Below the pieces are notes generated by a model. The model saw nothing but the letters and a program-made list of their open reading frames with translations. It was not told where the DNA came from and made no database searches. Position numbers and translations under genes: made by a program. Source: Methylotenera sp. (GTDB taxonomy: Bacteria; Pseudomonadota; Gammaproteobacteria; Burkholderiales; Burkholderiaceae_C). Taken from it: a DNA stretch of 64,000 nt. Shown in pieces: positions 27,518 through 47,652 of this stretch (positions within the stretch are counted from its first letter, which is position 1; the number at the start of each line of letters is the position of its first letter). Where the stretch lies: assembly GCA_021738245.1 (NCBI GenBank), contig JAIPCJ010000001.1:11504-75503 (forward strand). The letters run 5' to 3'.

Positions 27518-27570
27518 GGTGATTCCTGATTCGGGGTTGGCGTGCCAGCCCCGGCGGAACCGCCATGGGG

Positions 27571-27678
27571 CTAGCGTGAGGTCAGGACGCCGAAGCGCGC
27601 ACGCGACAGGCACAGCCGAGCCGCGCTCCGGCGCTCGGGAATCGTGGCGATCAGCTTGTCGAAGGTGCGGTTGAACAT
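27571..27678 (-). CDS. 35-aa small ORF between the attenuator and fusA ([35 protein letters not shown])
   Basis: ATG 13 nt after the terminator U-tract; TAG 54 nt before the fusA ATG; function unknown. Confidence 0.45.
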
Positions 27679-27690
27679 GGTGGAACTCTG

Positions 27691-27729
27691 AAAACGAAAA
27701 ACCCCGGGAGGGACAGGCCTGCCGGGGTT
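27691..27729 (-). terminator. attenuator-type intrinsic terminator in the fusA leader
   Basis: Minus strand AACCCCGG-CAGGCCTGTCCCT-CCCGGGGTT followed by TTTCGTTTT. Confidence 0.8.
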
Positions 27730-27778
27730 GGTTGGGACCGGAAGGCGGTGGCGCCTTCCGAACACGGTCGAAGGGCGC

Positions 27779-27820
27779 TCAGGTGTTGAGGCGGGCTTGG
27801 ATCGTGTGGTTGAGCTTCAT
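27779..27820 (-). CDS. putative leader peptide MKLNHTIQARLNT
   Basis: 13-codon ORF immediately followed by mutually exclusive hairpins and a terminator upstream of fusA. Confidence 0.6.
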   Translation of the reverse strand: MKLNHTIQARLNT

Positions 27821-27872
27821 GATGGGCAAGATTGTGGGCTGAACGGCTATCTGGGGAAGGGGGCAGGGTCTT

Positions 27873-29414
27873 TCAAGCCCCCGCAGGCAGGGCGGCCAGC
27901 TGGCTCACGCTGGCCTGCCGGTACGGCGCGCACAGCTGCTCGACGTAGGCCTGGTGCCCGGGCAGCCCTGCCACGGTGCGCGCGACCCTGGTGTGGATGT
28001 CGCCCAGGAAGCGCGTGAGCTCGTCACGGCCCATGAGGTCGGCCACCGGGTGGTAGCGCGCGGGCGTGATGCCCTGGCCCATCATGACCTGCACCCAGGA
28101 GTTCTCGGCAAAGAGCTCGTCGCTCGGGCGGAACACCCGGGCCGTCTCGCGGAAGAGCTCGATGCGGTGGCGCAGCGAGGGCAGGATGTCCATCTCGCGC
28201 ACATGCGTCCACAGCGCCGAGTCGGTGCGTTCGTTCACGTGATAGTGCAGCACGATGAAGTCGCGGATGTGCTCCAGCTCACGCTTGCTCTGCGCATTGA
28301 ACTCGTCGACGTCGGCCTGCTGGATGCCGCCTGACGGGAAGGTTTGCATCAGCCGCACGGCCGCGCGCTGGATCAGGTGGATGCTGGTGGACTCCAGCGG
28401 CTCGACAAAGCCGCTGGCCAGGCCGACCGCGATGCAGTTGCGATGCCAGACCTTGTCGCGCTGACCCGGCAGGAACTTGATGACGCGAGGCTGCGTGAGC
28501 AGTTCGCCCTCGACGTTCTTCTTGAGCACCTCGGGCGCATCGGCGTCGCTCATCTCCTTGCTGCTGTAGACGAGGCCATTGCCCACGCGATGCTGCAGCG
28601 GGATGCGCCATTGCCAGCCAAAGGGGTGGGCGATGGAGCGGGTATAGGGCCAGGCCTCGCGCACCGAGGCCGTCTGCACCGCGACGGCGCGGTCGCAGGG
28701 CAGCCAGTACGACCAGTCTTCATAACCCACGCCCAGGGCCTCGCCCAGCAGCATGGAGCGAAAGCCCGTGCAGTCGATGAACAGGTCGCCATCGATGCGG
28801 CTGCCATCCTGCATCTGCAGCGCGGTGATGGGGCCGTCCCGCCCCTGCGGGCCGTCCATCAGCACGGCGCCGATCTTGCCTTCGATGCGCTTGACGCCAT
28901 GCGCCTCGCTCATCGCGCGCAGGTACTTGGCATAGCGGCCGGCGTCGAGGTGGTAGGCGTAGTTCAGGCCGCTGCGCGGCACATGGGCGAAGCGGTTGGC
29001 AAAGGCGGCCACCGTCTCGGGGTTGTAGTCGGTGTAGGTGCGCGCCAGGCCGTCGCGCCGGCCCTTGAGCCAGAAGTGCTGGAAACCGGCGCTCCAGTGG
29101 TCGTTGCCGGTGCTGCCGAAGGAGTGGAAATAGTCCTGGCCGATGTTCTTCCAGCCCTCGAAATTGATGCCGAGCTTGAAGGTGGCGTTGGTGGCCGCCA
29201 TGAACTCGGCCTCGTTGATGCCGAGCAGGTTGTGGAAGGTCAGCAGGGCGGGGATGGTCGCCTCGCCGACGCCCACGGTGCCGATCTCCTCGGACTCGAC
29301 CAGCTTGATGTCGAGCTGCTTGCCGAGCAGCTTGCTCATCAGGGCGGCCATCATCCAGCCGGCGGTGCCGCCGCCGGCAATGACGACGCGGTTGAAGGGC
29401 TTGGAAGTGTTCAT
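27873..29414 (-). CDS. tryptophan-halogenase-family flavin-dependent halogenase, copy 2
   Basis: GGGTAG, VGVGEATIP, ATFKLGI, WQWRIP and GFVEPLES motifs; ATGA overlap with the cupin gene. Confidence 0.92.
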   Translation of the reverse strand: MNTSKPFNRVVIAGGGTAGWMMAALMSKLLGKQLDIKLVESEEIGTVGVGEATIPALLTFHNLLGINEAEFMAATNATFKLGINFEGWKNIGQDYFHSFGSTGNDHWSAGFQHFWLKGRRDGLARTYTDYNPETVAAFANRFAHVPRSGLNYAYHLDAGRYAKYLRAMSEAHGVKRIEGKIGAVLMDGPQGRDGPITALQMQDGSRIDGDLFIDCTGFRSMLLGEALGVGYEDWSYWLPCDRAVAVQTASVREAWPYTRSIAHPFGWQWRIPLQHRVGNGLVYSSKEMSDADAPEVLKKNVEGELLTQPRVIKFLPGQRDKVWHRNCIAVGLASGFVEPLESTSIHLIQRAAVRLMQTFPSGGIQQADVDEFNAQSKRELEHIRDFIVLHYHVNERTDSALWTHVREMDILPSLRHRIELFRETARVFRPSDELFAENSWVQVMMGQGITPARYHPVADLMGRDELTRFLGDIHTRVARTVAGLPGHQAYVEQLCAPYRQASVSQLAALPAGA

Positions 29415-30424
29415 CGCTTGAGTTGGTTCAAGAGTTGGGTGCGGGCCTGGCGCGACAGCGTCTCGTCGATGGGCCCGAGCAGGCCGCGGGCGGTGGCGGG
29501 AATGTGGTCCCAGGGCTGCGGGTCGTCGTTGAAGATGAAGTGATCGAGGTGGTGGCGCCAGATGCGCTTTTCTTTCTCGGGCAGGTCGCGCAGGGTCATC
29601 AGCGCCAGGCGCAGCGTGCTCAGCGGCGAATCCACGTACTCGGGGGTCTGCCGCCACCAGGCGTTGATCAGCAGGTTGACCGGCGCCAGGCCCTCCACGT
29701 GGTGGAACCACATGCTCGGGATGAAGAGGGCATCCCCCGGGTCCAGCTCCACCACCTCGCCGGCGGCCAGCGCCTGCGCGAAGCGGGGGAAGCGGTTGAA
29801 GTCAGGCGCGGCGAAGTCCACCAGGCTGATGGGCTGGCCGGCGGGTGTCGGGTCGAGCGGCCCGACGTAGAGGTTCTTGATCTGCTCCGGCGGGAACACC
29901 GTGAAGCGCCGCCGGCCCGCCGCCACCACCGCGAGGTTGTCCGGCAGGTCGTAGTGCGCGGCGATGCGGGTGCGGTTGCCCAGCCACAGGCTGACGAGCG
30001 CGTCCCGCGCGCCCAGGCCCAGGCCGTTGGCCTCCATGAAGCCGGGCAGCACGGCCTCCACCGTGGTCGAGCCCACGTACAGCGCCGGTGGCTCGGCCAC
30101 CGGGGCCACACCGAGCAAGCCGGTGAGCACCTGGTCGAGGGTGGCGCTGTAGCGGTTGAAGTTGAAGCGGGTCAGGCCCTCGTCGGCGTAGAACACACGG
30201 CCGCGCTCCTGGGGTTCGAGCTGGAACAGGCCGACGTGCACGCCGTTGTACAGGCCCATCAGATAGCGGGCCAGGGCTTCGTCAGACTGGCGCGCCGCCT
30301 GCACCACCGGCCAGTGCGCGAAGCCGCCGCGCACCACGTAGGGCCGCTCGGCCTTCAGCAAATCATCGGGCAGCGCGTTCGGGTCGAACGGGCCGGGCCA
30401 GGCGGGGACCTCACGCAACGGCAT
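29411..30424 (-). CDS. cupin-like / JmjC-type Fe(II) oxygenase (Cupin_8)
   Basis: SLWLGN, AHYD (HxD), GDALFIPSMWFHHVE (distal His) and LLINAWW motifs. Start at MPLREV; an alternative GTG lies at 30451. Confidence 0.85.
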   Translation of the reverse strand: MPLREVPAWPGPFDPNALPDDLLKAERPYVVRGGFAHWPVVQAARQSDEALARYLMGLYNGVHVGLFQLEPQERGRVFYADEGLTRFNFNRYSATLDQVLTGLLGVAPVAEPPALYVGSTTVEAVLPGFMEANGLGLGARDALVSLWLGNRTRIAAHYDLPDNLAVVAAGRRRFTVFPPEQIKNLYVGPLDPTPAGQPISLVDFAAPDFNRFPRFAQALAAGEVVELDPGDALFIPSMWFHHVEGLAPVNLLINAWWRQTPEYVDSPLSTLRLALMTLRDLPEKEKRIWRHHLDHFIFNDDPQPWDHIPATARGLLGPIDETLSRQARTQLLNQLKR

Positions 30425-30447
30425 GCTGTTTCCAGGTCGGTGATTCG

Positions 30448-30525
30448 CCACAGAGGCACAGAGGCACAGAGAAACCGGCCCGTGTTCGCACCCGGGCCAT
30501 CGGTCTGTGCCTCTTTGTCTCTGGG
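30448..30525. repeat. CACAGAG-type palindromic repeat, copy 3 (degenerate)
   Basis: CCACAGAGGCACAGAGGCACAGAG ... TCTGTGCCTCTTTGTCTCTGGG between sapC and the cupin gene. Confidence 0.75.
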
Positions 30526-30541
30526 ACCACGTTCATTGCGC

Positions 30542-31258
30542 TCAGCTCCGCCGCTGCCGGCTGGCACGCTCCAGCAGCACCGGCAGCTGCGCGAGCGAGG
30601 CGATCTGCATGTAGATGGGCAGCAGGTGGCCCTCGCGCGCCAGCGTCTCCAGCGCCGCGCCGGGCAGGGCGGCCAGGCGCTCCTCGTTGATGGTGAACAG
30701 GCCTGTCAGGCGCCCTTGCTCGCCGCTGGGGGTCTCGATGTCGATGACGAAGGGCTCCAGCAGCTGGTGGCGGGTGAGCGCCTCGATGAAGACGGGCAGC
30801 TGCTGCGCGTGTGCATGCAGGTGTTCCATCAGCTGCACGATGTGGTCGAGGTAGTCGCTGAAGCCGCCATGCGGCATGAAGAGGGCCGTGCCGACCTCGC
30901 CTTCGTCCGGCCGCACGATGCGCGGGCTGGCCAGGTCGATGTGCAGCTGCAGCGTGTCGTCGGGCGCGCGGCCGATCATGAAGGGGTCGCGCTGCAGGGC
31001 CATGGGCATCACGGGTGCGTCCCAGCCGGTGGGGGTCAGGAAGAGGTTCTGGCCTTCTTCCAGGCCGAACAGCGCGACCGGCTGAAAGCCGGCGTCGCCC
31101 TCCACCAGCTGGAAGACGATGGGGAAGTGCGCCTGCAGTTGGCGGAACTCGGCCGGCAGCGCGAGGCAGGACTGGCGGGCATCGCCGTGGGCCGCGGAGC
31201 GATCGGTGTGGATGCGCAGATGGCGGTGGGTGACGTTGTCGAGCAGGGCGGGAGTCAT
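30542..31258 (-). CDS. SapC-family protein
   Basis: LDNVTHRHLR, EFRQLQAHFPIVF, ALFGLEEGQNLFL and PF.IG pattern; typical position between halogenase and cupin genes. Confidence 0.82.
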   Translation of the reverse strand: MTPALLDNVTHRHLRIHTDRSAAHGDARQSCLALPAEFRQLQAHFPIVFQLVEGDAGFQPVALFGLEEGQNLFLTPTGWDAPVMPMALQRDPFMIGRAPDDTLQLHIDLASPRIVRPDEGEVGTALFMPHGGFSDYLDHIVQLMEHLHAHAQQLPVFIEALTRHQLLEPFVIDIETPSGEQGRLTGLFTINEERLAALPGAALETLAREGHLLPIYMQIASLAQLPVLLERASRQRRS

Positions 31259-32787
31259 GCGATGGACTGGTGGAGGTGATCGATCAAGGCGCGATGGCCC
31301 GGCAGGCCCGGCACGAAGCGGCGAGCCTGGCGGACGGCTTCGTCGAAGCAGGCCTGCGCCACCTGCAGGCGATCAGCGGGCGGGGCCTGCCGCTCGGGGC
31401 GAAAGCCCATGCCGTAGAGCACGTATTGGTAGCTGGCGGATGGGAAGACCTCGTCATTGCGGCCGAAGTCATGCCGGGCCGGGGCGCGCAGGCGCCACAT
31501 CGGCAGCAGTTCGCGCAGCCGCTCGGGCCAGGTGGCGGGGTCGCGGTGGTCGCGCCAGTAGGCGCTGTCGTCGCGCTGGCTGAGGGCGTAATGCAGCTTC
31601 AGGAAGTCGATGACGCGGGCCCAGCGGTAGCTGAAGTCGTCGTTGAAGCGGCGGGCCACGGCGTCCATGGTGGTGCGGGTCATCGGCAACTCGTCGCACA
31701 GGCGCTGGACGGAGAGTTCCACCATCGCCAGCGCGGAGGCTTCCAGCGGCTCGATGAAACCCGAGGCCAGGCCGATGGCGACGCAGTTGCGCACCCAGAA
31801 GCGCTCCCGGTAGCCGGGGTCGTAGCGGATCTGCCGCGGCGTGGGGCGGTCGGGCGGTGTGCCGGTCGCGTCGAGGTAGGCCTGCAGGGCGGCCTGGGCC
31901 TCGTCATCGCTGGCATGCCGGCGCGAGTACACGCAGCCCACACCGCGGCGGCTGGGCAGGCCGATGTCCCAGATCCAACCCTTGGCCCAGGCAGTGGCGA
32001 TGGTGCAGGTGGCCAGCGGCGCATCGGGCTGGGCGTGGGGCACCTGCACCGGCATGGCGGCGTCGTTGAACAGCACGTCGCGCTCGCTCTTCAGGCCCAC
32101 GCCGAAGTGCTCGCCGATGAGCCGCGCCGACAGGCCCGAGCAGTCGATGAACAGGTCGCCGGGCAGCGGGCCATGGGCGCGGGTCTGCAGCGCGGTGATG
32201 TCGCCCTCGGCGCTGGTGAGCACCGCATCGACATGGTCGACGACGTGCCGCACGTTCAGCCGCTGCGTGGCGTGCTCGCGCAGCATCTGGGCAAACAGGC
32301 CGGCATCGAAGTGGTAGGCGTAGTTGGCGACGGCGGCGAAGCCGGGGGTCTGTACCTGCTTGGGGGCACGGCCGGCTTCGCAGACCTGCACCGACGGGCT
32401 GACGACATCCGCGAAAGGCCGCTCAGGCTGGGTGGCGAGCCAGGCCTGCACCAGGTCGACATCGCCATAGCCGACCGGCAGCATGAAGGGGTGGTAGTAG
32501 CGGTCGCCCTGGGCGCCGGGGGCACCGCGCGACCAGCCGTCAAAGCGTGAGCCCTGCTTGAACGAGACCTGGCAGCGGCGGATGAAGGCCGCCTCGTCCA
32601 GCCCGATGCGGCGCAGGGTGTCGCGCATCGAGGGCCAGGTACCTTCGCCCACGCCGATGGTGGGGACGTCAGTGGATTCGATCAGCGTGATGCGCAGATC
32701 GCCGTGCTCGGCCGCGAGCAGACCCGCCACCAGCCAGCCCGCCGAGCCGCCGCCCAGCACCACGACTTCACGCACTCTCTCGTTCAC
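31255..32787 (-). CDS. tryptophan-halogenase-family flavin-dependent halogenase, copy 3
   Basis: GGGSAG, IGVGEGTWP, SFKQG, WIWDIG and GFIEPLEA motifs; GTG start with AGGAGG RBS. Confidence 0.9.
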   Translation of the reverse strand: MNERVREVVVLGGGSAGWLVAGLLAAEHGDLRITLIESTDVPTIGVGEGTWPSMRDTLRRIGLDEAAFIRRCQVSFKQGSRFDGWSRGAPGAQGDRYYHPFMLPVGYGDVDLVQAWLATQPERPFADVVSPSVQVCEAGRAPKQVQTPGFAAVANYAYHFDAGLFAQMLREHATQRLNVRHVVDHVDAVLTSAEGDITALQTRAHGPLPGDLFIDCSGLSARLIGEHFGVGLKSERDVLFNDAAMPVQVPHAQPDAPLATCTIATAWAKGWIWDIGLPSRRGVGCVYSRRHASDDEAQAALQAYLDATGTPPDRPTPRQIRYDPGYRERFWVRNCVAIGLASGFIEPLEASALAMVELSVQRLCDELPMTRTTMDAVARRFNDDFSYRWARVIDFLKLHYALSQRDDSAYWRDHRDPATWPERLRELLPMWRLRAPARHDFGRNDEVFPSASYQYVLYGMGFRPERQAPPADRLQVAQACFDEAVRQARRFVPGLPGHRALIDHLHQSIA

Positions 32788-32801
32788 GGACGCACCTCCT
32801 G

Positions 32802-32827
32802 AAAGAAAAAGGGCCGCTTGCGCGGCC
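32802..32827 (-). terminator. intrinsic terminator between the TBDR and halogenase genes
   Basis: Minus strand GGCCGC-GCAA-GCGGCC followed by CTTTTTCTTT, directly before the halogenase RBS. Confidence 0.7.
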
Positions 32828-32976
32828 TCGCCAAGCGGCGAACAAGGGCGGAGCTCCACGCAGGGCAGCACCGCCGAACCAGACTTTGCCTCACAAGGAC
32901 GCGTCGTTGCGTCCCGACTTTCCTTGACCTCCCCGCGGGAAGGGGGGCCGGACGGCGCCGGCCCCGAGGCGCGATC

Positions 32977-35970
32977 TCAGAACTTGTAACGCGCGCCGAT
33001 CATGATGCGGCGGCCCAGCTGGGTCACCGCGCCGATCTGGTTCTCGTTGCGCAGGTGGGTGCGGGTGTACTGGTCGGTCAGGTTGATGGCTTCGAACTGC
33101 AGGCGCAGGTTCTTGTCGAAGTTGTAGCCCACGCTCAGGTCGAACTGGCCATAGGGCTCGACGTACAGCGGCTGGGCGCCTTCGACGCCGCCGTAGTTGG
33201 CGGCCAGGAACTTGCCGCGCCAGTTGTAGGCCAGGCGGGTGGTCCAGGTCTCGTTCTCGAAGAAGCCCACCAGGTTGCCCGAGTCACCCAGGCCCACGAG
33301 CACGTCGGTCTGCGCGCCGGCCTTGTTGTTGTCGTAGCTCAGGTTGGAGCGGACCTTGGTGAAGTTCGCCGACACGCCGAAGCCGGTGTTGCCGAAGATG
33401 TGCTGGGCGTTGAGCTCGATGCCGTTGAGCTTGCTGGTGCGCTGGTTGTTCTGGAAGGTGCCCATCTGAAACACCAGCAGCGGGTCGGTGGGCTGGGCGG
33501 TGATGATCTTGTTGGTCGCGTCCACGCCCGGCTGGCCGGCGAAGTTGGCGAAGATGTAGTCGCGGATGCAACCCGAATCGTTCGCCGCGCACTTGCCGAC
33601 CTGCACCGCCTTCTGGAAGTAGCCGCCGCCGATCGGCGTGGTGATGCCGGCGATGGTCTGCGGGGTGATGATGGCCTCGTTGTAGTCCTTCAGCGACTTG
33701 CGGAAGTAGCTGGCCGCGATGTAGCTGCTCTTGGCGTAGTAGTACTCGCTGGAGAAGTCGAGGTTGTTGGACTGCAGCGGCTTCAGGTCGGGGTTGCCCA
33801 CGGAGCCCGAACCACCGTCGATGCGGGCCAGGCCATTGAGCGTGCGACCGCCCTGGATGGCGTTCCAGCCGGGGCGACCGATGGTCTTGCCGTAGCTGGC
33901 GCGCACCTTCCAGTCAGCGCTCAGGTCAGCGCTCCAGTCGATGGAGGGCAGGGCGTAGCCGTACTTGCCGTCGCGCGAGGCGTTGGTGGTGCCGTTGAAG
34001 GTGATCGGGATCTCGTTGGCCGACACCCAGCGCACGGTGGAGGGCACGGATTCGACGCTCGGCGAATGCACCTTGGTGCGCTCGTAGCGCAGGCCGGCCG
34101 AGAGGTCCATCGGCACGCCCCAGTCCCAGGCCAGGTTGTACTGACCGAACAGCGCCTGCGACTTTTCCGTGGTGCGGTAGTCGTCGGTGAAGTTGAACGA
34201 CGCCTTGAGCAGCGAGTCCGAGCCCAGCGCCTTGATGGCCGCGGCGCGCAGGTCCTCGAAGTTGAAGTAGAAGAACTGGTTGAACAGCCGCGGGTCGTTG
34301 GAGCCCGGGATGCGGCTGAAGTACTTGCTGATGGAGTCGACCTTCCAGATGTCGTCCGGCATGGCCGACGGGCCGCCGGCGGCGCCGCCACCCCAGGTGT
34401 CGCGCTGCACGTTGGCGAAGGCCGAGCGGTTCTTGACCTCGGTGAGCGAGAGGCCGAAGTCCAGGCTGCTGTCGGCGTCGATCTTCCAGTTGCCCTTGGT
34501 CTGGATCTGGTTGACCTCGTTCTTCTGGTAGCTGTTGCCGAAGACCGAGCCCTGCAGCTCCATCAGCTTGGGGTCCAGCGTGGTGCCCTTGATGTTGAGC
34601 ACCGGGAACTTGTTGCTGAAGTCGACGTAGGTGTCGTTGCGGTTCAGCGAGGCCGTGCCCAGGGTCACGCTCGTGCCCAGCGGGTCGTTGGCGCCCGAGG
34701 TCGCGGTGGCGTGGTGGGCGTCGAAGTCGAAGTTCAGCGCATCGGTGGCCTTCCACTTCAGGTTCAGGCCGATCTGCTGGTTCTTGTTCTTGGTCTGGAT
34801 GCGCGAGGCGCCCATGGCCAAGTCGGAGTTGGTCATGCGCTCGCCGTAGATGACGGGCGAGGAGGGCGAGCCCTGCTGGTATTCACCGAACTGGCCGCCG
34901 TAGTTGAACCAGGCGGAGATGTCGTTGCGGCGCTGGCGGAACTTCTGCTCCGACATGATGAAGTCCAGCGTGCCGACCACGTCTTTCACCGGGCGCATCT
35001 GCAGCACGAGCTGGCCGTTCAGGCGCTCGCGGTGCACGCCGGTGAACGAGTAGTTCATGTTCTGCGGCACGCTGTAGATGGAGTTGGCGGTCGGGCGGTT
35101 CTTGATGTCGCCCGACGAGGCCGGCGGCAGGCCGCCCCAGACGGCGTTGCTGCCGCTCCAGTCGTTGTCCTTGATGCCGTCGAAGGTCTTCCAGCCGCTG
35201 CTGACGTTGGCCTGCGAGTAGCCGGAGTCGCGCACCTGGTAGGTACCCATCAGCGCGATGCCGAACATGCCGTCGTTGGTTTGCGTGCTGTAGATGCCGC
35301 TCAGCTCGGGCGTGGCGTTCTTGCCCTGCTCCTCGCCGGGCAGGCGGCGGGCCGACTGGTCGCTGACCAGCTTGACGCCGACCTGGGCGATGGTGTCCTT
35401 GATGTCGAACGGGCGCTGGGTGCGCACATTGATGGTGGCGCCCATGCCGCCGGTGGGGCTGCTGGCGCGGCTGGTCTTGTAGACCTCCAGCGCGGCGACG
35501 CCATCCGAGGCGAGGTTGGAGAAGTCGAAAGAGCGCGAGCTCGGGGCGCTGCCGTCGATGCTGGAGGCCGGCATCTGGCGGCCGTTGAGCAGCACGAGGT
35601 TGAAGTCCGGGCCCATGCCGCGCACGGTCACGCGGGTGCCTTCGCCGTTGCTGCGGTCGATGGACACGCCGGAGATGCGGCTCAGCGACTCAGCGAGGTT
35701 GGTGTCGGGGAACTTGCCGATGTCCTCGGCCACGATGCCGTCGACCAGGCCGGAGGACGAGCGCTTCAGGTTGACCGAGGTCTCCAGCGACTTGCGGATG
35801 CCGGTGACGACCACCGTCTCCAGCTGCGTCGTGCTGGCCAGCGCCTGCGGCACCGAGGTGCTGGGCGTGGGGCCCGCATTGGGTTGCTGGGCGTGGGCAG
35901 CGCCCATGCACAGCAGGCCGCTTGCGGCGGCCAGGGTCGTGAGGCGAAGGGCAGGGCGAAGCTGTCTCAT
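32977..35970 (-). CDS. TonB-dependent receptor (carbohydrate-uptake type)
   Basis: TonB box ETVVVTG; DGIVAEDIGKFPDTNLAESLSRISGV plug; C-terminal F; 997 aa. Confidence 0.95.
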   Translation of the reverse strand: MRQLRPALRLTTLAAASGLLCMGAAHAQQPNAGPTPSTSVPQALASTTQLETVVVTGIRKSLETSVNLKRSSSGLVDGIVAEDIGKFPDTNLAESLSRISGVSIDRSNGEGTRVTVRGMGPDFNLVLLNGRQMPASSIDGSAPSSRSFDFSNLASDGVAALEVYKTSRASSPTGGMGATINVRTQRPFDIKDTIAQVGVKLVSDQSARRLPGEEQGKNATPELSGIYSTQTNDGMFGIALMGTYQVRDSGYSQANVSSGWKTFDGIKDNDWSGSNAVWGGLPPASSGDIKNRPTANSIYSVPQNMNYSFTGVHRERLNGQLVLQMRPVKDVVGTLDFIMSEQKFRQRRNDISAWFNYGGQFGEYQQGSPSSPVIYGERMTNSDLAMGASRIQTKNKNQQIGLNLKWKATDALNFDFDAHHATATSGANDPLGTSVTLGTASLNRNDTYVDFSNKFPVLNIKGTTLDPKLMELQGSVFGNSYQKNEVNQIQTKGNWKIDADSSLDFGLSLTEVKNRSAFANVQRDTWGGGAAGGPSAMPDDIWKVDSISKYFSRIPGSNDPRLFNQFFYFNFEDLRAAAIKALGSDSLLKASFNFTDDYRTTEKSQALFGQYNLAWDWGVPMDLSAGLRYERTKVHSPSVESVPSTVRWVSANEIPITFNGTTNASRDGKYGYALPSIDWSADLSADWKVRASYGKTIGRPGWNAIQGGRTLNGLARIDGGSGSVGNPDLKPLQSNNLDFSSEYYYAKSSYIAASYFRKSLKDYNEAIITPQTIAGITTPIGGGYFQKAVQVGKCAANDSGCIRDYIFANFAGQPGVDATNKIITAQPTDPLLVFQMGTFQNNQRTSKLNGIELNAQHIFGNTGFGVSANFTKVRSNLSYDNNKAGAQTDVLVGLGDSGNLVGFFENETWTTRLAYNWRGKFLAANYGGVEGAQPLYVEPYGQFDLSVGYNFDKNLRLQFEAINLTDQYTRTHLRNENQIGAVTQLGRRIMIGARYKF

Positions 35971-36017
35971 TCACTTGTCTCCAGAGTTGTGATCTTGTCG
36001 TGTGCTCGGTGATGAGC

Positions 36018-36031
36018 TGAAAGCGCTTTCA
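36018..36031. promoter_or_regulatory. LacI-family operator TGAAAGCGCTTTCA
   Basis: Perfect 14-bp palindrome with central CG upstream of the TBDR. Confidence 0.85.
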
Positions 36032-36043
36032 AGAATAAGCGAT

Positions 36044-36057
36044 TGGAAGCGCTTTCA
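36044..36057. promoter_or_regulatory. LacI-family operator TGGAAGCGCTTTCA
   Basis: One-mismatch copy 26 bp from the previous site. Confidence 0.8.
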
Positions 36058-36219
36058 ACCTAGGCAACACCCTCGGTGTGCGGTGTGCCCGCAACGGCGG
36101 GCGCTGCGGGCGTCCTGCCGCGTCAGGCAGGCGATGTGATCGCTCCCATGGGAGAAATCAGCCGCCGCGTCCCGAACTCGGAACATGCCAGGTCGAAAAG
36201 CGTCCGCTCGCTCTCGCGA

Positions 36220-36233
36220 TGAAAGCGCTTTCA
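36220..36233. promoter_or_regulatory. LacI-family operator TGAAAGCGCTTTCA (distal)
   Basis: Perfect copy, extending to the 16-bp ATGAAAGCGCTTTCAT. Confidence 0.85.
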
Positions 36234-36320: not shown

Positions 36321-37370
36321 TCAGCGCGGCAGGCGCCGGGTGCTCTCGCGCACCACCAGCTCGGGCGCCGGCAGTTGGGCCTTGGGCTGGCCGCCGCGCA
36401 GCATCTCCAGCATGGCCGTGGCCGCCTCGACGCCGATCTCGTAGACCGACTGCCGCACCGTGGTCAGCGGCGGCATGGCGTAGCGCGCCATGATGAGGTC
36501 GTCGAAGCCGACGAGGGAGACATCGTCCGGCACCCGCACATTGCGGCGGTGCAGCCCGAGGCAGGCGCCGATGGCCATCTGGTCGTTGGAGGCGAACAGC
36601 GCCGTGAAGTGCATGTCCCGCTCCAGCAGCCGGGTGACCGACAGCATGCCGCCGGCCTCGGTGTAGTCGCTCTGCACGATGAGCTGCGGGTCCACGGGGA
36701 TGCCGGCGGCGGCGAGGGCATCGAAGTAGCCGTTCTGGCGCTCCACCGCGTCGTCGTGCATCAGGTCGCCGGCGATGAAGGCGATGCGCCGATGGCCCTG
36801 CTCGATGAGATGCTGCGTGGCCAGTCGGGCGCCCTCGCGGTTGTCGAAGCTGAAGCTGAAAAGCTGCGGCCCCGACAGCTGCCGGCCCACGACCACCATG
36901 GGCAGCGCGTCCGACACTCGGCTGAGTTCGTCGTCCGACAGTCGGCCGGCCAGCACGATGACGCCGTCCACCCGGCGCGACAGCAGGGTCTCGATGGCCT
37001 TGCGCTCGTCGTCTTCATGCCAGTTACCTGACACGAACAGCGGCACATAGCCAGCGCGTTCGAGCTCGCGCTCGATGCCGAGCAGGGCCTCGCCGTAGAA
37101 GGGGCTGGAGATGATCTGCGTGACCACGCCCACGCTCAGCGTGCGCCCGCCGGCCAGCCCGCGCGCGACCGGGTTGGGCCGGAAGCCCAAGTCGCGGATG
37201 GCGGCCTGCACCGCATCCTTCTTGGCCTGGCTGACGGCCGCGGTGCCGTTGAGGATGCGTGAGACCGTGCTGGGCGAGACGCCCGCGGCTTCAGCCACCT
37301 GCTCCAGCGTGACGACGCCTTCGGGGCGGCTGGGGAGCGCTTTCTTGGCGGGCAGGTTCTTGTGGTTCAT
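36321..37370 (-). CDS. LacI-family transcriptional regulator (BglR-like)
   Basis: TLEQVAEAAGVSPSTVSRILNG HTH, PNPVARGL hinge, NDQMAIG, VSLVGFDD and PLTTVRQ motifs. Confidence 0.95.
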   Translation of the reverse strand: MNHKNLPAKKALPSRPEGVVTLEQVAEAAGVSPSTVSRILNGTAAVSQAKKDAVQAAIRDLGFRPNPVARGLAGGRTLSVGVVTQIISSPFYGEALLGIERELERAGYVPLFVSGNWHEDDERKAIETLLSRRVDGVIVLAGRLSDDELSRVSDALPMVVVGRQLSGPQLFSFSFDNREGARLATQHLIEQGHRRIAFIAGDLMHDDAVERQNGYFDALAAAGIPVDPQLIVQSDYTEAGGMLSVTRLLERDMHFTALFASNDQMAIGACLGLHRRNVRVPDDVSLVGFDDLIMARYAMPPLTTVRQSVYEIGVEAATAMLEMLRGGQPKAQLPAPELVVRESTRRLPR

Positions 37371-37431: not shown

Positions 37432-38571
37432 TCACAACTTGGTGAATCGCAGCCAGTTCAGGTTCCAGCCGCCCCTCGGTGCGAACACGCCGACGTTGTA
37501 GGTGCCGGCATTGATGTTCACGGTGTGCGAGACCGTCGTCCAGTTCTGCCAGCCGCCGGTGGCCGGCACGCCGAGCTGGCCGAGCTGGATGCTGCCGGCG
37601 TTGAGGTCCAGCGACAGCGTGCCGCCGCTCGGGCTGGCCACGCGGTACTCGACCCGGTAGCTGCCGCTGCTCGGGAAGGTGATGCTGTTGTAGGCCATCC
37701 AGTCATTGGTATCGATCCAGCCGACGTTCAGCCCGCCTTCGGTACAGGCCTCGGTCTGCACGCCGGCCTGGGCGCTGAAGGCCTCGGCTTCGATCTGGCG
37801 CGACCAGGTCGGGGCGTACACGCGCACATAGTCCACGTACATGCGTGCCGGCAGCGCCGCGTTGTTGACGTTGAAGCCCGGCCAGTTGCCGCCGACCGCG
37901 AAGTTCAGCAGCAGGAAGAAGTCCTTCTGGAACTCGTCGGTGCCGTTCACGCCGTTGGCGATGTTGACCTCGTGGTACTTGTTGCCGTCGACGAACCAGC
38001 GGATGGTGTTGGTGTCCCACTCCACCGCATACACATGCCAGTCGGTCACGGTGGTGGCGGTGTTGCCGCCGTACTGGGCATAGGCGCCGGTGTGGTCTTG
38101 CCAGTGGATGGTGCCGTAGACCTTGTTCTCGTCGTTGACGTGCTCCATGACGTCGATCTCGCCGGAGGCGGGCCAGCCGACCTGGGGTAGGTTGGCGCCC
38201 AGCATCCAGAACGCCGGCCAGGCGCCCAGGAAGGACGGCAGCTTCATGCGCGCCTCGATGCGGCCGAAGCGGAAGGTCTTCAGGCCCTGCGTCTTCATGC
38301 GGGCCGAGGTGTAGGACGCGCCGCCGAAGTTCTCGCGCTTGGCCGTGATCACCAATGCGCCGTTCTCGACGGTGGCGTTCTCGCGGCGGTAGTACTGCAG
38401 CTCGTTGTTGCCCCAGCCCCCGGCGCCGGTCTCGAAGACCCAGTTCGGGCCGATGCTGCCGTTGAACTCGTCACTCCAGACGAGCTGCCAGGACTGCGCT
38501 TGCGCAAGACCCGCGGCAGCCATCACGAGGCCGGCCAGGGCCGGGCGGATGAAGGATCGGAAGAGGCTCAT
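37432..38571 (-). CDS. GH16 beta-1,3-glucanase (laminarinase-type) with C-terminal CBM6
   Basis: WSDEFNG, GWGNNELQYY, WPAFWMLG and EIDVME catalytic motif; IEAE..NVGWIDTNDW..WNLNWL CBM6; signal peptide. Confidence 0.93.
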   Translation of the reverse strand: MSLFRSFIRPALAGLVMAAAGLAQAQSWQLVWSDEFNGSIGPNWVFETGAGGWGNNELQYYRRENATVENGALVITAKRENFGGASYTSARMKTQGLKTFRFGRIEARMKLPSFLGAWPAFWMLGANLPQVGWPASGEIDVMEHVNDENKVYGTIHWQDHTGAYAQYGGNTATTVTDWHVYAVEWDTNTIRWFVDGNKYHEVNIANGVNGTDEFQKDFFLLLNFAVGGNWPGFNVNNAALPARMYVDYVRVYAPTWSRQIEAEAFSAQAGVQTEACTEGGLNVGWIDTNDWMAYNSITFPSSGSYRVEYRVASPSGGTLSLDLNAGSIQLGQLGVPATGGWQNWTTVSHTVNINAGTYNVGVFAPRGGWNLNWLRFTKL

Positions 38572-38616
38572 GAGATGTCTCCAACTGTGGGGTGACCATC
38601 GCCTGTGTCGGCGATG

Positions 38617-38630
38617 TGAAAGCGCTTTCA
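38617..38630. promoter_or_regulatory. LacI-family operator TGAAAGCGCTTTCA upstream of GH16
   Basis: Perfect copy 46 bp upstream of the GH16 start. Confidence 0.85.
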
Positions 38631-42563: not shown

Positions 42564-42577
42564 TGAAAGCGCTTTCA
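42564..42577. promoter_or_regulatory. LacI-family operator TGAAAGCGCTTTCA upstream of the ABC operon
   Basis: Perfect copy 7 bp before the SBP ATG. Confidence 0.85.
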
Positions 42578-42584
42578 TAAAGTC

Positions 42585-43865
42585 ATGTCTGCCTCGTCCG
42601 CCCTCTCTCGTCGACACGTTCTCGCCGCCGCCCTCGGCACGGCAGCGGGCGGTGCCACCAGCCCGGTGCAGGCCCGGCCGGGCGAGCCGCTGACCGTGGC
42701 GGCCTTCCCGCTGGTCGATGTCATCGCCCAGGACGTGCTCAAGAGCTGGGCCACGCGTCACCCCGAGGTGCGTGCCCGGGTCATCAGCCGCCAGTACGAC
42801 GACCACCACACCGCCATGACCACGGCGCTGTCCACGTCCGGCCATCTGCCCGACGTGATTGCGCTGGAAACGAGCTATCTGGGCCGCTTCTCGCTGGGCA
42901 CGGGCCTGGAAGACCTGTCGGCGCCGGCCTACGGCGCGGATCGCTTCAAGGACCGCTTCGTTTCCTTCGCGTTCGAGACAGGTCGCAACCGTGACGGGCG
43001 CGTGGTGGCCATGCCCACCGATGTCGGGCCAGGCTCGCTGTTCTACCGTGCTGATCTGCTCGCCCAGGCTGGGCTCAAGGAGGCGGACCTGACCGCCTCC
43101 TGGGACAGCTATGTGCAGGCCGGTCAGCAACTCAAGGCCCGCACGGGGGCTTACCTGATCGGCGACGTGCGGTTGTTGAAGGACATCGTGCTGCGCGCCG
43201 GCACGCCGGCAGGCGAGAACATCTTCTTCGACCGCCAGCAGCGCGCCCAGGTCACCTCGCCACGCTTCGTGCGGGCGTTCGAGCTCGCGCAGAAGGTGCG
43301 CCGCCTGGGCCTGGATGCGCGCGTGGAGGTGTGGTTCAACGACTGGGCCGAGATGCTCAAGCGCGGCCGCCTGGCCACCGAGATCTCGGGCGGCTGGATG
43401 GCCGGCCAGATGGCCAACTGGGTCGCCCCCGGCACAGCAGGCAAATGGCGCGTGGCGCAGTTGCCCGAGCGCACCTTCTGCGCCTACGGCGGCACCTATT
43501 ACGCCATCCCGCGGCGCTCCGACCCGGCCAAGAAGGCCCTGGCCTGGCAGCTCATCCAGGAGCTCACGCTGGACCGCCAGCGCCAGCTCGACGCCTTCCG
43601 TTCGCAGGATGCCTTCCCGGCGTTGCTCGCCGCGCAGGATGACGCCTTCTTCGACCAGCCCGTGCCCTTCCTCGGCGGCCAGCCGGCCCGGCTGTTGTGG
43701 CGTGACGCAGCACGCCGCATTCCGGTGATGCCGGTGCACAAGCAGCAGAAGTTCGCCGACGAGGTCGTCAATGCCGAGCTCGACAACGTGCTGGAGTACG
43801 GCAAGCCGATCGAGCGGGCGTTGGCGGATGCGCAGGCGTTGTTGGTTCACAGGGCGAACCGGTGA
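42585..43865 (+). CDS. sugar ABC transporter substrate-binding protein (Tat signal)
   Basis: SRRHVL signal; LPDVIALE, AMPTDVGP..FYRADL and YGGTYYAIP motifs of CUT1 SBPs. Confidence 0.92.
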   Translation: MSASSALSRRHVLAAALGTAAGGATSPVQARPGEPLTVAAFPLVDVIAQDVLKSWATRHPEVRARVISRQYDDHHTAMTTALSTSGHLPDVIALETSYLGRFSLGTGLEDLSAPAYGADRFKDRFVSFAFETGRNRDGRVVAMPTDVGPGSLFYRADLLAQAGLKEADLTASWDSYVQAGQQLKARTGAYLIGDVRLLKDIVLRAGTPAGENIFFDRQQRAQVTSPRFVRAFELAQKVRRLGLDARVEVWFNDWAEMLKRGRLATEISGGWMAGQMANWVAPGTAGKWRVAQLPERTFCAYGGTYYAIPRRSDPAKKALAWQLIQELTLDRQRQLDAFRSQDAFPALLAAQDDAFFDQPVPFLGGQPARLLWRDAARRIPVMPVHKQQKFADEVVNAELDNVLEYGKPIERALADAQALLVHRANR

Positions 43866-43924
43866 TGGTGATGGCTGCGCTCTCTCGCTTGCTTGAGGCA
43901 AGGGCGGCTTTACGCCAACGCCCA

Positions 43925-44504
43925 TGCCGGGAATTCGCCCCGGCGGGCGACCTACTTTTTGAGCGACCAAAAAGTAGGCAAAAAGTCGCCCCCCGAGCCG
44001 CCCGGCCTTTCGCTTCGCTCTGGCTTCCCTGCGCTGCTCAGGCCTTGAGGGCCCGCGCAAAACTCGCTTCGCTACGCTGCGCTCAAACAGTTGCGCGGAG
44101 TCAGTTCTTGAAGCGCGCTGCGCGCGCGCCCTCAAGTCCTTCCGCTGCTCGGCGGGCTCAAGGGGGGACAGCAGGAACAGCCACGACCGAAGGGATGTGG
44201 CGTTTGGCTGTTGGCTGTTTCGGCTGTTCTGGGCTTCCCCTTCAAAACCGCCGAGAAGCGCAGAAGCCCGGGGCGCGCGCGCAGCGCGCATCAACCTCTG
44301 ACTTCGCGCCCCTTTGTCTAAACGTAGCGAACGCAGTGAGCGAAGTGAGTTGGGCGCGGCCCCGGGCTTCGAGCATCGCAGGGAACCCACCCGCAGGGTG
44401 GGCGGTTTTGCAGGGGCCGCTCTTTGCCTACTTTCTGGCGGGCCAGAAAACCGAAGGTTTCGGCGCAGCCAAAGTAGGTCGCCCGCCGGGGCGAATTCCC
44501 GGCA
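43925..44504. mobile_element. 580-bp non-autonomous palindromic (MITE-like) element
   Basis: Perfect 34-bp terminal inverted repeats TGCCGGGAATTCGCCCCGGCGGGCGACCTACTTT at 43925-43958 and 44471-44504; inner imperfect arms at about 44027-44089 and 44315-44383; no transposase. Confidence 0.8.
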
Positions 44505-44568
44505 CCGACCGTGCCACCAAGCCCACGCCACAACAAGCACGCCTGGCGGGCAACAACGAGGCCCACGC

Positions 44569-45461
44569 ATGACCCTGCGCATCCCCAACCGCTGGGCCCC
44601 CTACCTGCTGGTCAGCCCCTTCCTCATCCTCTTCGCCGTCTTCGGCCTCTTCCCCCTGCTGTTCTCGCTGTGGCTGGCTTTCCAGTCGTGGGAGCCCACC
44701 AGCGGCATCGAGGCCATGCGCTTCGTGGGCCTGGACAACTTCGTGTTCGCCCTGACCGACGGCTGGTTCTGGAAGTCGCTGCGCAACACGCTGTGGCTGG
44801 CCATCGCCTCCGGTGTGCCGCAGCACCTGGTGGCCCTGCCGCTGGCGGTGTTCCTGCACCGGTCCTTCGGGCGCTGGCGTGGCCTGGTGTCGGGTGCGTA
44901 CTTCCTGCCCTACATCACCTCCACCGTGGCGATCGCGATGCTGTTCGGCTCGCTCTTCTCCACCGACTACGGCCTGGTCAACCAGGCCCTGCATGCGCTG
45001 TTCGGCATGGAGCACATCCACTGGCTGCGCTCGCCCGAGGCCATCAAGCCGGCGGTGGCGCTGGTGGTGTTCTGGCGCTACGTGGGCTTCAACCTCGTGC
45101 TGTATCTCGCCGCGCTGCAGACCATCCCGCAAGACCTCTACCAGGCCGCCAAGCTCGACGGCGCCGGCTCCTGGCAGCAGTTCCTGCGCATCACGCTGCC
45201 GGGCTTGAAACCCATGATCCTGTTCGGCGTCACGCTGTCGGTCATCGGCGGCCTGCAGCTCTTCGAGGAGCCTTTCATCCTGACCAATGGCAAGGGCGGC
45301 GCCGACCAGCAGGCCATGACGGTGGGCATCTACCTCTACCGCCTGGCGTTCGACTTCAGCGACTTCGGTGCCGCCAGTGCACTGGCCTGGATCATGTTCG
45401 GCGTCATTGCGCTGCTGACCTGGCTCACCAATAAGGCGTTTGCAGAAAGGCAGGCCCAGTC

Positions 45462-45465
<4 letters not shown>
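44569..45465 (+). CDS. sugar ABC transporter permease
   Basis: YLLVSPF, FVGLDNF and EAA-like loop LYQAAKLDGA. Confidence 0.93.
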
Positions 45466-46280
<815 letters not shown>

Positions 46281-46289
46281 GAAGCCTCC

Positions 46290-47621
46290 ATGAATCCTTT
46301 GCACCGCCAGTTCCCCGCCGATTTCGTCTGGGGCGTGGCCACCAGCAGTTTCCAGATCGAAGGCGCCGCCCATGAAGACGGCAAGGGCGAGTCCATCTGG
46401 GACCGCTTCTGCAAGCAGCCCGGCGCCATCGCCGACGCGAGCAACGGCGACATCGCCTGCGACCATTTCCACCGGCTGGACAGCGACCTCGATCTCATCG
46501 CCTCGCTGGGCGTGAATGCCTACCGCTTCTCCATCGCCTGGCCGCGGGTGCAGGCGCTCGGCCATGGCGAGTTCAACCCGCGCGGGCTGGACTTCTACGA
46601 GCGGCTGGTCGACGGTCTGCAGCGCCGCGGCATCCAGGCCTGGGCCACGCTCAACCACTGGGACCTGCCCCAAGGCCTGCAAGACCGCGGCGGCTGGAAC
46701 GATCGCGACACGGTGCACCGCTTCGTCGACTACGCCCGCCATGTGCAGGCCCGCCTGGGCGACCGCCTGCACGGCATCACCACCCACAACGAGCCCTGGG
46801 TGATTGCCACCCTCGGCCACGACCAGGGCAACTTCGCGCCCGGCATCAAGAGCCGCAAGATCGCGGCCCAGGTGTCGCACCACCTGCTGCTCAGCCACGG
46901 GCTGGCCATGCAGGCCCTGCGGGCCGATGGCGCCAAGAGCCAGCTCGGCATCGTGCTCAACCTGTCGTCCACGGTGCCCGCCACCGCGATGCCGGCCGAC
47001 ATCGCCGCGGCTGACCTGGCCGATTCGCGCAGTCGCCGCTGGTATGCCGACCCGCTCTTCAAGGGCCACTATCCGGCCGATGTGCTGGCCGAGCTGGGTG
47101 CGGACGCGCCCGTGGTGCAGGCCGGCGACATGGCGGCCATCGCGCAACCGATGGACTACCTCGGCATCAACTACTACACCCGCAGTGTCATCGCCGCCAG
47201 CGGCGAGGACTGGAACGCCAAGGGCCGCGGCCTGCCGGTGTCCGACATGGACTGGGAGATCTACCCCCGCGGCCTGACCGACCTGCTGGTGCAGATGCAC
47301 CGCGACTACCCAGCCCTGCCGCCGGTCTACATCACCGAGAACGGCGGCGCCTTCAAGGACGACGCGCTGGCCCAGGGCCGCGTGCAGGACGACGACCGCA
47401 TCGCCTACCTGCGCGAGCACATCGCCGCCGTGGCTTGCGCCATGCAGCAGGGCGTGCCCATGGCCGGCTACATGGTCTGGAGCCTGATGGACAACTTCGA
47501 GTGGGCCAGCGGCTACCTCAAGCGCTTCGGTATCGTGCATGTCGACTACGCCACCCAGGCCCGCACGCCCAAGGCCAGCGCCGAGTGGTACCGCCAGTTC
47601 CTGCGCGACTGGCGCGGTTGA
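46290..47621 (+). CDS. GH1 beta-glucosidase
   Basis: ATSSFQIEG, YRFSIAWPR, THNEP, YITENG and WSLMDNFEW motifs. Confidence 0.94.
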   Translation: MNPLHRQFPADFVWGVATSSFQIEGAAHEDGKGESIWDRFCKQPGAIADASNGDIACDHFHRLDSDLDLIASLGVNAYRFSIAWPRVQALGHGEFNPRGLDFYERLVDGLQRRGIQAWATLNHWDLPQGLQDRGGWNDRDTVHRFVDYARHVQARLGDRLHGITTHNEPWVIATLGHDQGNFAPGIKSRKIAAQVSHHLLLSHGLAMQALRADGAKSQLGIVLNLSSTVPATAMPADIAAADLADSRSRRWYADPLFKGHYPADVLAELGADAPVVQAGDMAAIAQPMDYLGINYYTRSVIAASGEDWNAKGRGLPVSDMDWEIYPRGLTDLLVQMHRDYPALPPVYITENGGAFKDDALAQGRVQDDDRIAYLREHIAAVACAMQQGVPMAGYMVWSLMDNFEWASGYLKRFGIVHVDYATQARTPKASAEWYRQFLRDWRG

Positions 47622-47652
47622 ATCCCGAACTTCACAACAACACGGAGACCCC

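Follow-up and report, generated by a model that had tools for sequence, protein, structure and literature searches.

The locus comprises five genes that run in one direction on the minus strand: a TonB-dependent receptor (TBDR) followed by a cassette of HalB, SapC, an FIH-like Cupin_8 protein and HalA. They lie beside a repressor gene and operators within a 64-kb window, the whole stretch of DNA that was analysed. The features are:

27873..29414, minus strand: HalA, flavin-dependent halogenase, Xcc4156/BrvH type, 513 aa (PF04820)
29411..30451, minus strand: FIH-like JmjC/Cupin_8 2-oxoglutarate/Fe(II) oxygenase (PF13621)
30542..31258, minus strand: SapC family protein, 238 aa (PF07277)
31255..32787, minus strand: HalB, flavin-dependent halogenase, 2PYX type, 510 aa from GTG 32787 (PF04820)
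32802..32827, minus strand: terminator-like GC hairpin with T-run, 15 nt before the HalB ribosome-binding site
32977..35970, minus strand: TBDR, carbohydrate (Xanthomonas/Caulobacter) class, 997 aa, signal peptide (PF07715 and PF00593)
36018..36031, unstranded: proximal operator, 48 nt upstream of the TBDR ATG
36044..36057, unstranded: operator with one mismatch, TGGAAGCGCTTTCA
36220..36233, unstranded: distal operator TGAAAGCGCTTTCA, perfect palindrome, about 250 nt upstream of the TBDR start
36321..37370, minus strand: LacI-family repressor, presumed regulator of the regulon (PF00356 and Peripla_BP)
37432..38630, minus strand: GH16 and CBM6 beta-1,3(4)-glucanase gene with operator (38617-38630)
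42564..48540, plus strand: operator (42564-42577), then ABC sugar-binding protein, two permeases, GH1 beta-glucosidase and second GH16

The HalB stop and SapC start share an ATGA (31258-31255), as do the cupin stop and HalA start (29414-29411). The most likely HalB start is GTG 32787, which an AGGAGG ribosome-binding site precedes, rather than 32871, and the cupin may start at ATG 30425 instead of 30451. Both overlaps are kept at 4-13 nt across 67 related loci, gene order is the same in nearly all of 80 related loci, and the adjacency of TBDR and cassette is maintained over about 80 loci from several orders. Each of the five genes gave a dN/dS between 0.09 and 0.58, values which indicate that all are under purifying selection; judged by this range, the conserved order and the conserved overlaps, the arrangement is not due to chance. 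The four genes downstream of the TBDR have no signal peptides and retain all of their catalytic residues. The first-pass annotation had described five co-oriented genes, two ATGA couplings (halogenase/sapC and cupin/halogenase), halogenases that keep the FAD motif, Lys, Glu and WxWxI, and a cupin that keeps an HxD...H iron triad. All of this was confirmed: the five genes and their coordinates on the minus strand, both overlaps by position, and the residues by motif inspection and by alignment to FIH.

This gene set is known. [quoted passage not shown] All four component families are found here in one co-oriented string (a Cupin_8 gene, two PF04820 halogenases with FK(L/Q)G, a TonB receptor and SapC), and the halogenase Rossmann and Lys motifs and the JmjC HxD...H are again intact. 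The present copy differs in having no second classical 2OG dioxygenase and in its host, a betaproteobacterium (Roseateles, Burkholderiales), whereas Iyer et al. named alpha- and gamma-proteobacteria; the predicted halogenated siderophore is also a poor fit to a sugar-class receptor under a LacI beta-glucan regulon. On contig C177, a paralogous copy carries a DUF6445 domain fused to the halogenase. The literature search found no functional study of the cassette, only Iyer et al. (2010), the Xcc4156 and BrvH papers and mentions in metatranscriptomes. The earlier statement that similar sets are known and their physiological substrate unsettled is in line with the first three of these sources; its list of hosts (Xanthomonas, Caulobacter and Alteromonadales) was incomplete, as it left out the Betaproteobacteria to which this Roseateles belongs.

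Both halogenases matched PF04820 (HalA 611 bits, HalB 404 bits) and have the GxGxxG, WxWxI(P) and catalytic Lys and Glu of flavin-dependent halogenases. HalA reads GGGTAG, GVGEAT, FKLGI, WQWRI(P) and FVEPLEST; HalB reads GGGSAG, GVGEGT, FKQGS, WIWDI(G) and FIEPLEAS, so that it has WIWDIG where the classical motif is WxWxIP. The free-tryptophan 5-, 6- and 7-halogenases (PrnA, RebH, PyrH and Thal) possess long substrate loops with which free Trp is held by its amino and carboxyl groups, and MibH is a flavin-dependent halogenase that chlorinates Trp only inside its lanthipeptide substrate. HalA was about 70% identical to Xcc4156 over 498 residues (PDB 6Y1W, E 1e-201) in an almost gap-free alignment, and Xcc4156 is itself without the long free-Trp substrate loops; HalA also matched BrvH (PDB 6FRL, E 1e-132). 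Both relatives have the same catalytic motifs as HalA, and halogenation, known for them, is predicted from sequence for HalA. Xcc4156 of Xanthomonas campestris B100 brominates indoles and not tryptophan, and its structure has an open active site without Trp-binding loops (Xcc4156 paper). BrvH brominates free indole and its derivatives in vitro, but with such low turnover of indole that its authors doubt this to be the natural substrate, and they liken the enzyme to the peptide halogenase MibH (PMC5945002). MibH, which also has an open active site, was named as the nearest functional analogy by the authors of both studies, although it shares only about 26% identity with Xcc4156 and has a lanthipeptide substrate, while the HalA/HalB locus contains no lanthipeptide or other precursor gene. 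HalB gave full-length matches to PDB 2PYX (E 2e-159), 9LTB (E 2.5e-148) and 9LU2 (E 1.7e-134), structures of putative tryptophan halogenases for which no function has been published, and the literature search found no biochemical data on this 2PYX subtype.

The cupin (PF13621 Cupin_8, 212 bits) had FIH as its nearest solved relative (E 2e-18), then JMJD5, JMJD7 and TYW5 (to 6e-11). These enzymes act on protein side chains or tRNA. Over the alignable core, about residues 158-281, the Fe(II) triad H166-x-D168...H250, which in JmjC/FIH-type oxygenases sits on a double-stranded beta-helix, corresponds to H199, D201 and H279 of FIH; Lys214 of FIH, which binds the C5 carboxylate of 2-oxoglutarate, is replaced by Arg181, a conservative swap with which binding may be kept.

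SapC matched PF07277 with 206 bits, and it is 98% identical to the SapC of the Roseateles puraquae type strain. Its AlphaFold model was of high confidence (pLDDT 92.7) and found no fold match in the PDB. The family occurs in 95 of 301 sampled Pseudomonadota genomes, where most SapC genes are solitary, a halogenase, cupin or receptor being absent from their surroundings. Those linked to the module, including the one at this locus, make up one main clade within this wider family; their strict monophyly was rejected (p-AU 0.0018) due to two outliers. Among stand-alone SapC genes from 60 diverse genomes no neighbouring family recurred in more than nine loci, and those that did recur (FAD oxidase, DEAD helicase, DsbD and FGase) are housekeeping genes and therefore give no hint of function. 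The suggestion that SapC may be an accessory or partner subunit is weakened by the stand-alone majority.

The receptor has the Plug and beta-barrel domains and scored 584 bits against TIGR01782 ('TonB-Xanth-Caul'; cut-off 310). With an ABC transporter, hydrolases and a regulator in the same locus, it forms a locus of the CUT type. As in the CUT loci of Blanvillain et al. (2007; PMC1790865), a sugar-class TBDR is combined with an ABC importer, GH16, GH1 and GH64 enzymes and a LacI repressor with shared operators; the main text of Blanvillain et al. makes no mention of halogenase, SapC and cupin genes. This genome encodes five or six receptors of this class that have no cassette, so such receptors do not generally need one. 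At least three TBDRs and two further sugar loci of the genome are accompanied by parts of the cassette; the loci beside which such parts lie include a xyloglucan locus and a GH1/PfkB locus. Genomes of the same family that lack SapC lack this receptor class too. When the N-termini of module-linked and unlinked receptors of the genome were compared by eye, no distinguishing leader was seen; the linked receptors are close kin, which would confound a column-wise contrast.

The first-pass annotation had placed the module in a beta-glucan regulon with visible regulator and operators, and this is supported by the distribution of the operator. The LacI-type operator, TGAAAGCGCTTTCA, is a perfect 14-bp palindrome with five sites in the window against 0.1 expected and 10 sites genome-wide. 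Three operators precede the TBDR and others precede the GH16-CBM6 gene (probable start near 38571) and the ABC/GH1/GH16 genes; the genome-wide search placed a further one 74 nt before an unlinked GH64-CBM56 beta-1,3-glucanase gene. Where the sequence of an orthologous locus extends far enough upstream, an operator before the TBDR is nearly always kept, a site of the distal type lies at about equal distance in orthologous loci, and the LacI gene adjoins the TBDR in most of them. The GH64 site and the conservation upstream of the receptor both argue that the cassette is wired into a LacI-type regulon for beta-glucans. Two GH18 chitinases are also encoded in the locus.

An operator between TBDR and HalB was never seen in orthologous loci. 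This gap, 187 nt in the window and with a median of 171 nt over the 67 loci, holds a terminator-like hairpin that was missing from the earlier description. An analogous hairpin with T-run was present in the gap at 59 of the 67 loci; shuffled gaps passed in 28 of 67 cases and the antisense strand in 11 of 67. As the pass rate of the shuffled gaps shows, the criterion is lenient, and the enrichment is real and statistically modest. The hairpins of distant loci are unrelated in sequence. In the window the HalB ribosome-binding site follows the T-run after only about 15 nt, which leaves no space for a promoter. No conserved small ORF that might encode a precursor peptide was found in the gap, and an Rfam search of 27300-36400 at E <= 1 returned no match. 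The position of the hairpin implies that the cassette would be expressed in attenuated form rather than equally with the receptor. From the sequence alone we infer that receptor and cassette are co-transcribed, with read-through of the hairpin.

It had been proposed that this is not a normal natural-product cluster, and the gene content agrees. No flavin reductase, NRPS, PKS or exporter is present among the main open reading frames of the window, and Pfam searches of the window genes detected no scaffold enzyme (NRPS, PKS, ligase or precursor peptide) and no exporter or resistance gene. Two Flavin_Reduct genes lie elsewhere in the genome, outside the window.

We tentatively propose that a known TonB receptor/Trp-halogenase/SapC/JmjC set is here controlled by a LacI beta-1,3-glucan regulon and tailors a bulky, probably peptidyl substrate that is linked to the receptor, a reading with a somewhat less than even chance of being right. 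Beta-glucan oligosaccharides would lift LacI repression; the receptor would be made in bulk and read-through of the terminator would yield less of the four cytoplasmic proteins. These four may act as a joint oxidative tailoring set in which the two halogenases would brominate or chlorinate, the FIH-like enzyme would hydroxylate and SapC would perform an unknown step or hold the substrate. The substrate would be a bulky aromatic, with a peptide or protein that has a functional link to the receptor as the likeliest candidate; neither the sugar cargo nor free tryptophan nor a product of NRPS/PKS enzymes would fit. A bulky or peptidyl substrate is favoured over cargo processing or a classical natural product on several grounds: HalA aligns almost without gaps to Xcc4156 with its open site and BrvH has been likened to MibH; the nearest solved relatives of the cupin modify protein side chains or tRNA; the window has neither a scaffold-building enzyme nor an exporter; and same-family genomes without SapC are also without this receptor class. 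Against this reading stand the lack of a precursor-peptide gene and of a module-specific receptor N-terminus, the same-class receptors that have no cassette, and the stand-alone majority of SapC genes; we also know of no precedent for halogenation of an outer-membrane protein. The weak in vitro action of the known relatives on free indoles also makes a small-molecule substrate equally compatible with the halogenases.

One alternative, unlikely but with a real chance of being correct, is that the cassette makes a small halogenated and hydroxylated Trp or indole metabolite, siderophore-like or a signal or antibiotic released while feeding, with the receptor either its uptake route or merely co-regulated. 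Such a product was predicted by Iyer et al. (2010; PMC2938197), and it accords with the bromination of free indole and derivatives by Xcc4156 and BrvH in vitro, with the full set of catalytic residues in both halogenases and the oxygenase, and with the failure to find a precursor peptide. However, the receptor is of the carbohydrate class, and its glycoside-hydrolase locus is controlled by a sugar repressor and is not iron-regulated; the neighbourhood has no exporter and no ligase, NRPS or tryptophan-pathway gene; indole turnover in vitro is low enough for authors to doubt it as the natural substrate; and many paralogous copies per genome, each by a different sugar locus, are hard to explain in this way.

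Another possibility, which we regard as quite improbable, is that no halogenation takes place in vivo and that the proteins work as simple monooxygenases, as sensors of oxygen or redox state or as structural partners, or else that the cassette hitch-hikes and has no functional connection with the receptor. The autonomous life of stand-alone SapC and the terminator that parts receptor from cassette would fit this, but the halogenase-specific Lys, Glu and WxWxI are kept in both enzymes, purifying selection acts on all of the genes, the receptor has stayed adjacent over about 80 loci in several orders, and relatives halogenate in vitro. Very improbable, despite co-regulation of the cassette with beta-glucan uptake and breakdown genes and despite the two GH18 chitinases in the locus and the GH64 in the regulon, which suggest fungal cell walls as food, is the first-pass proposal that the enzymes detoxify or catabolize an aromatic or glycosylated compound met during glucan feeding, entering with or attached to the cargo (a phenolic glycoside or melanin-linked fungal wall), since beta-1,3-glucan oligosaccharides have no electron-rich aromatic ring, no ring-cleavage or dehalogenase genes follow, cassette parts lie beside several different TBDR or sugar loci of one genome, the xyloglucan and GH1/PfkB loci among them, which argues against a cargo-specific substrate, and the set is spread over diverse alpha- and gamma-proteobacteria (Iyer et al., 2010; PMC2938197).

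Within the preferred reading of a receptor-linked substrate, a bolder and improbable version is that the cassette modifies the receptor polypeptide itself, or a co-made exported protein, before Sec export, leaving halogenated Trp or Tyr and hydroxylated Asn, Asp, Lys or Arg, with SapC holding the unfolded precursor. If true, a bacterial outer-membrane protein would for the first time be known to be halogenated, and sugar receptors would carry enzymatic halogen and hydroxyl marks that might, for example, alter the surface loops seen by phage or tune gating.

The locus is a clean, well-regulated further copy of a known puzzle and not a new system, and as such it leaves knowledge of the kind unchanged. 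It does lend itself well to experiments: the operon is compact, the freshwater genus is harmless and can be cultivated, the repressor is defined and has a perfect 14-bp operator, and oligosaccharides of laminarin or curdlan are a likely inducer. Any future model would also have to accommodate two new constraints: receptor and cassette are separated by a conserved terminator, and SapC divides into a clade linked to the module and a majority that stands alone. For biocatalysis the halogenases are of interest, and their native substrate has been missing for more than 15 years; the cassette is among the most widespread 'known unknowns' tied to bacterial glycan foraging.

Five co-oriented genes recognized in the first-pass annotation were confirmed in place, all on the minus strand:

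32977-35970, minus: TonB-dependent receptor, 997 amino acids, Plug and barrel domains (TIGR01782, 584 bits)
31255-32787, minus: halogenase HalB, next after the receptor (PF04820, 404 bits)
30542-31258, minus: SapC (PF07277, 206 bits)
29411-30451, minus: Cupin_8 protein (PF13621, 212 bits)
27873-29414, minus: HalA, the second halogenase (PF04820, 611 bits)

The receptor belongs to the 'Xanthomonas/Caulobacter' class of carbohydrate TonB-dependent receptors, and the four genes behind it form the cassette. The ATGA stop/start overlaps described earlier hold for HalB/SapC (31258-31255) and cupin/HalA (29414-29411), as do the catalytic motifs: HalA and HalB, only 34% identical, both carry GxGxxG, GVGE(A/G)T, the Lys of FK(L/Q)G, WxWxI and the Glu of EPLE(S/A), and alignment of the cupin to FIH shows the iron triad retained as H166-x-D168 and H250, with Arg181 at the position of FIH Lys214. 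Two gene models are amended: for HalB the most likely start is GTG 32787, which has AGGAGG ahead of it, and ATG 30425 is a possible start of the cupin. As a set, the genes are a neighbourhood already described in alpha- and gamma-proteobacteria (Iyer, Abhiman, de Souza and Aravind 2010; PMC2938197): JOR/JmjC, one to three tryptophan halogenases, TonB-class receptor and SapC.

The nearest relatives are in the Burkholderiales (Roseateles/Pelomonas, Rubrivivax, Ideonella and Inhella), and SapC of Roseateles puraquae CCUG 52769 is 98% identical to that of the window. Across 80 related loci the order receptor-HalB-SapC-cupin-HalA is almost invariant, with some receptor-SapC-cupin-HalA variants. In the 67 loci carrying the complete set, each of the five genes shows purifying selection (dN/dS 0.09-0.58), HalA and SapC being the most conserved. 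These loci have overlaps of 4-13 nt at HalB/SapC and cupin/HalA and a median receptor-HalB gap of 171 nt; in the window this gap is 187 nt and holds a GC hairpin followed by CTTTTTCTTT. A hairpin with a T-run is found in the gap of 59 of the 67 loci, its stem differing in sequence beyond recognition between distant ones, but the same criterion also picks out 28 of 67 shuffled and 11 of 67 antisense gaps. We read this layout as a receptor gene ending in a putative leaky terminator, behind which two gene pairs, each coupled in translation, would be expressed at a lower level. The SapC-cupin spacer (30452-30541, minus) can form a long stem, GAGGCACAGA ... TCTGTGCCTC, enclosing a GC-rich inner hairpin, and this region differs in length between orthologous loci.

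Downstream of HalA lies a stand-alone EF-G paralogue (25502-27613), and the leader between the two (27518-27830, minus) is strongly conserved. It contains a 13-codon uORF (MKLNHTIQARLNT), a pair of alternative hairpins, and a GC stem plus T-run. After these comes a stretch of about 50 nt that 11 of the 12 EF-G-carrying orthologous loci share almost nucleotide for nucleotide. This resembles an RNA element more than a coding one; there is no Rfam match.

Upstream of the receptor, the same strand encodes a LacI-family repressor (36321-37370), a glucanase (GH16-CBM6) and a pair of chitinases (GH18-CBM5/12); the genes of an ABC importer, together with GH1 and another GH16, run divergently from these. 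The perfect 14-bp LacI-type palindrome TGAAAGCGCTTTCA occurs five times in the window at two or fewer mismatches, against 0.1 expected:

36018, 36044 and 36220: three operator copies ahead of the receptor gene
38617: operator ahead of GH16-CBM6
42564: operator ahead of the ABC operon

The whole draft genome holds only 10 sites at one or fewer mismatches, one of which lies 74 nt upstream of a GH64-CBM56 beta-1,3-glucanase gene on a different contig. In orthologous loci of other genomes the operator again stands upstream of the receptor gene, mostly in two or three copies, and none was found between receptor and HalB. The earlier proposal that the module is wired into a beta-glucan regulon is thus well supported at the sequence level, by the operators in window and genome and by their conservation ahead of the receptor. 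Two more of the 10 genome sites, adjacent copies on contig C35 (16885 and 16898; L007), precede a gene for a 271-amino-acid PEP-CTERM protein, unexpected for a sugar regulon. The beta-glucan locus has, at its far end (49433-51352, minus), a gene for a TonB_C-domain protein of 281 amino acids directly downstream of one for a MalK-like ABC ATPase; this protein could be the energiser of the locus's receptor.

In total, the same genome encodes eight halogenase homologues and three SapC proteins. A paralogous module on contig C177 reads TBDR-SapC-cupin-halogenase; its HalA-type halogenase (L002:3345-5594, minus) is fused C-terminally (residues 519-744) to a DUF6445 domain (PF20043, 215 bits), which has no sequence relative in the PDB and may be the 'second dioxygenase' of some neighbourhoods of Iyer et al. 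Contig C91 carries TBDR-halogenase with a convergent Cupin_8 gene, and C58 two tandem halogenases behind GH1 and PfkB, with LacI and MFS genes adjoining. Within the window, a third, HalA-like halogenase (17484-19061, plus), with neither SapC nor cupin, stands first in the GH31-GH9-MFS-CE4 string of what appears to be a xyloglucan utilization locus, so that a second sugar regulon of the window also has a halogenase. On contig C50, a HalB-type halogenase follows a Phd antitoxin/PIN toxin pair; the operator-like site TGAAAGCGCTTCCA (C50:4316-4329, L005), which is the 36044 variant in reverse orientation, stands shortly before this string, and this solitary halogenase is perhaps also a member of the LacI regulon.

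SapC had been suggested as an accessory or partner subunit, a view weakened by its wider distribution. PF07277 occurs in 95 of 301 sampled Pseudomonadota genomes, and when the best match was taken from each of 60 of these, only about 11 had a receptor, halogenase or cupin beside it; the others shared no recurrent neighbour. On a tree of 144 sequences, 90 of 92 module-linked SapC proteins form one pure clade, 51 stand-alone proteins lie outside it, and there are three changes between the linked and the stand-alone state; two outliers cause strict monophyly of the linked proteins to be rejected (p-AU 0.0018). SapC thus also exists independently of the cassette, which weakens the view that it is only a halogenase subunit. 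The SapC gene on contig C16 (L001:9938-10672), 26% identical to that of the window, is a member of the widespread stand-alone group; its start overlaps the end of a CNNM/CorC gene, and a FeeM-type N-acyl amino acid synthase gene follows. SapC has no sequence relative in the PDB, and a confident AlphaFold model built from 33 sequences (pLDDT 92.7, pTM 0.88) found nothing there with Foldseek (best E 0.24, TM <= 0.15).

HalA aligns nearly gap-free with Xcc4156 of Xanthomonas campestris (PDB 6Y1W; E 1e-201) and also matches BrvH (PDB 6FRL; E 1e-132). As published, both brominate indole and its derivatives, with low turnover, and do not act on free tryptophan. Lack of the Trp-binding loops leaves their active sites open, and the authors, to whom the native substrates were unknown, likened them to the peptide halogenase MibH and proposed larger substrates, 'possibly even peptides' (PMC7336383; PMC5945002). 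HalB matches the uncharacterized structures 2PYX, 9LTB and 9LU2, for which a literature search found no paper. The best solved relatives of the cupin are FIH, JMJD5, JMJD7 and TYW5, all of them hydroxylases that act on side chains of proteins or on a tRNA base.

We tentatively propose that the cassette tailors a bulky receptor-linked substrate, probably a peptide or protein, since the receptor alone stays copy-specific, the active sites are open, the cupin is kin to protein hydroxylases and biosynthetic genes are lacking. Four same-family genomes without SapC also lack a close homologue of the window's receptor. Against this reading, no precursor peptide was found, the receptor-HalB gap having no conserved small ORF, no receptor-specific leader was seen, and many receptors of this class occur without the cassette, five or six in this genome having no part of it nearby. 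The relatives' activity on free indoles in vitro also counts against it, and would suit equally well a small-molecule product such as the halogenated siderophore-like compound predicted by Iyer et al. (PMC2938197). We consider such a product unlikely, and their prediction suits this copy poorly: the receptor is of the sugar class, is placed under a sugar repressor and surrounded by glucanase genes, and the vicinity has neither scaffold nor export genes. The absence of normal natural-product genes had been remarked on before, and flavin reductase, NRPS, PKS and exporter are indeed missing among the window's genes, two Flavin_Reduct genes lying elsewhere in the genome. A bolder form of the receptor-tied reading, that the receptor itself is the substrate, is more doubtful still. 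The earlier idea of an aromatic or glycosylated substrate met during glucan feeding fits poorly: aromatic rings are absent from beta-glucan, and within this one genome the cassette is also found with receptors and loci that serve other sugars. While the kind of gene set is already known, this copy adds a host among the Betaproteobacteria, a class not named by Iyer et al., and an unusually clear regulon.
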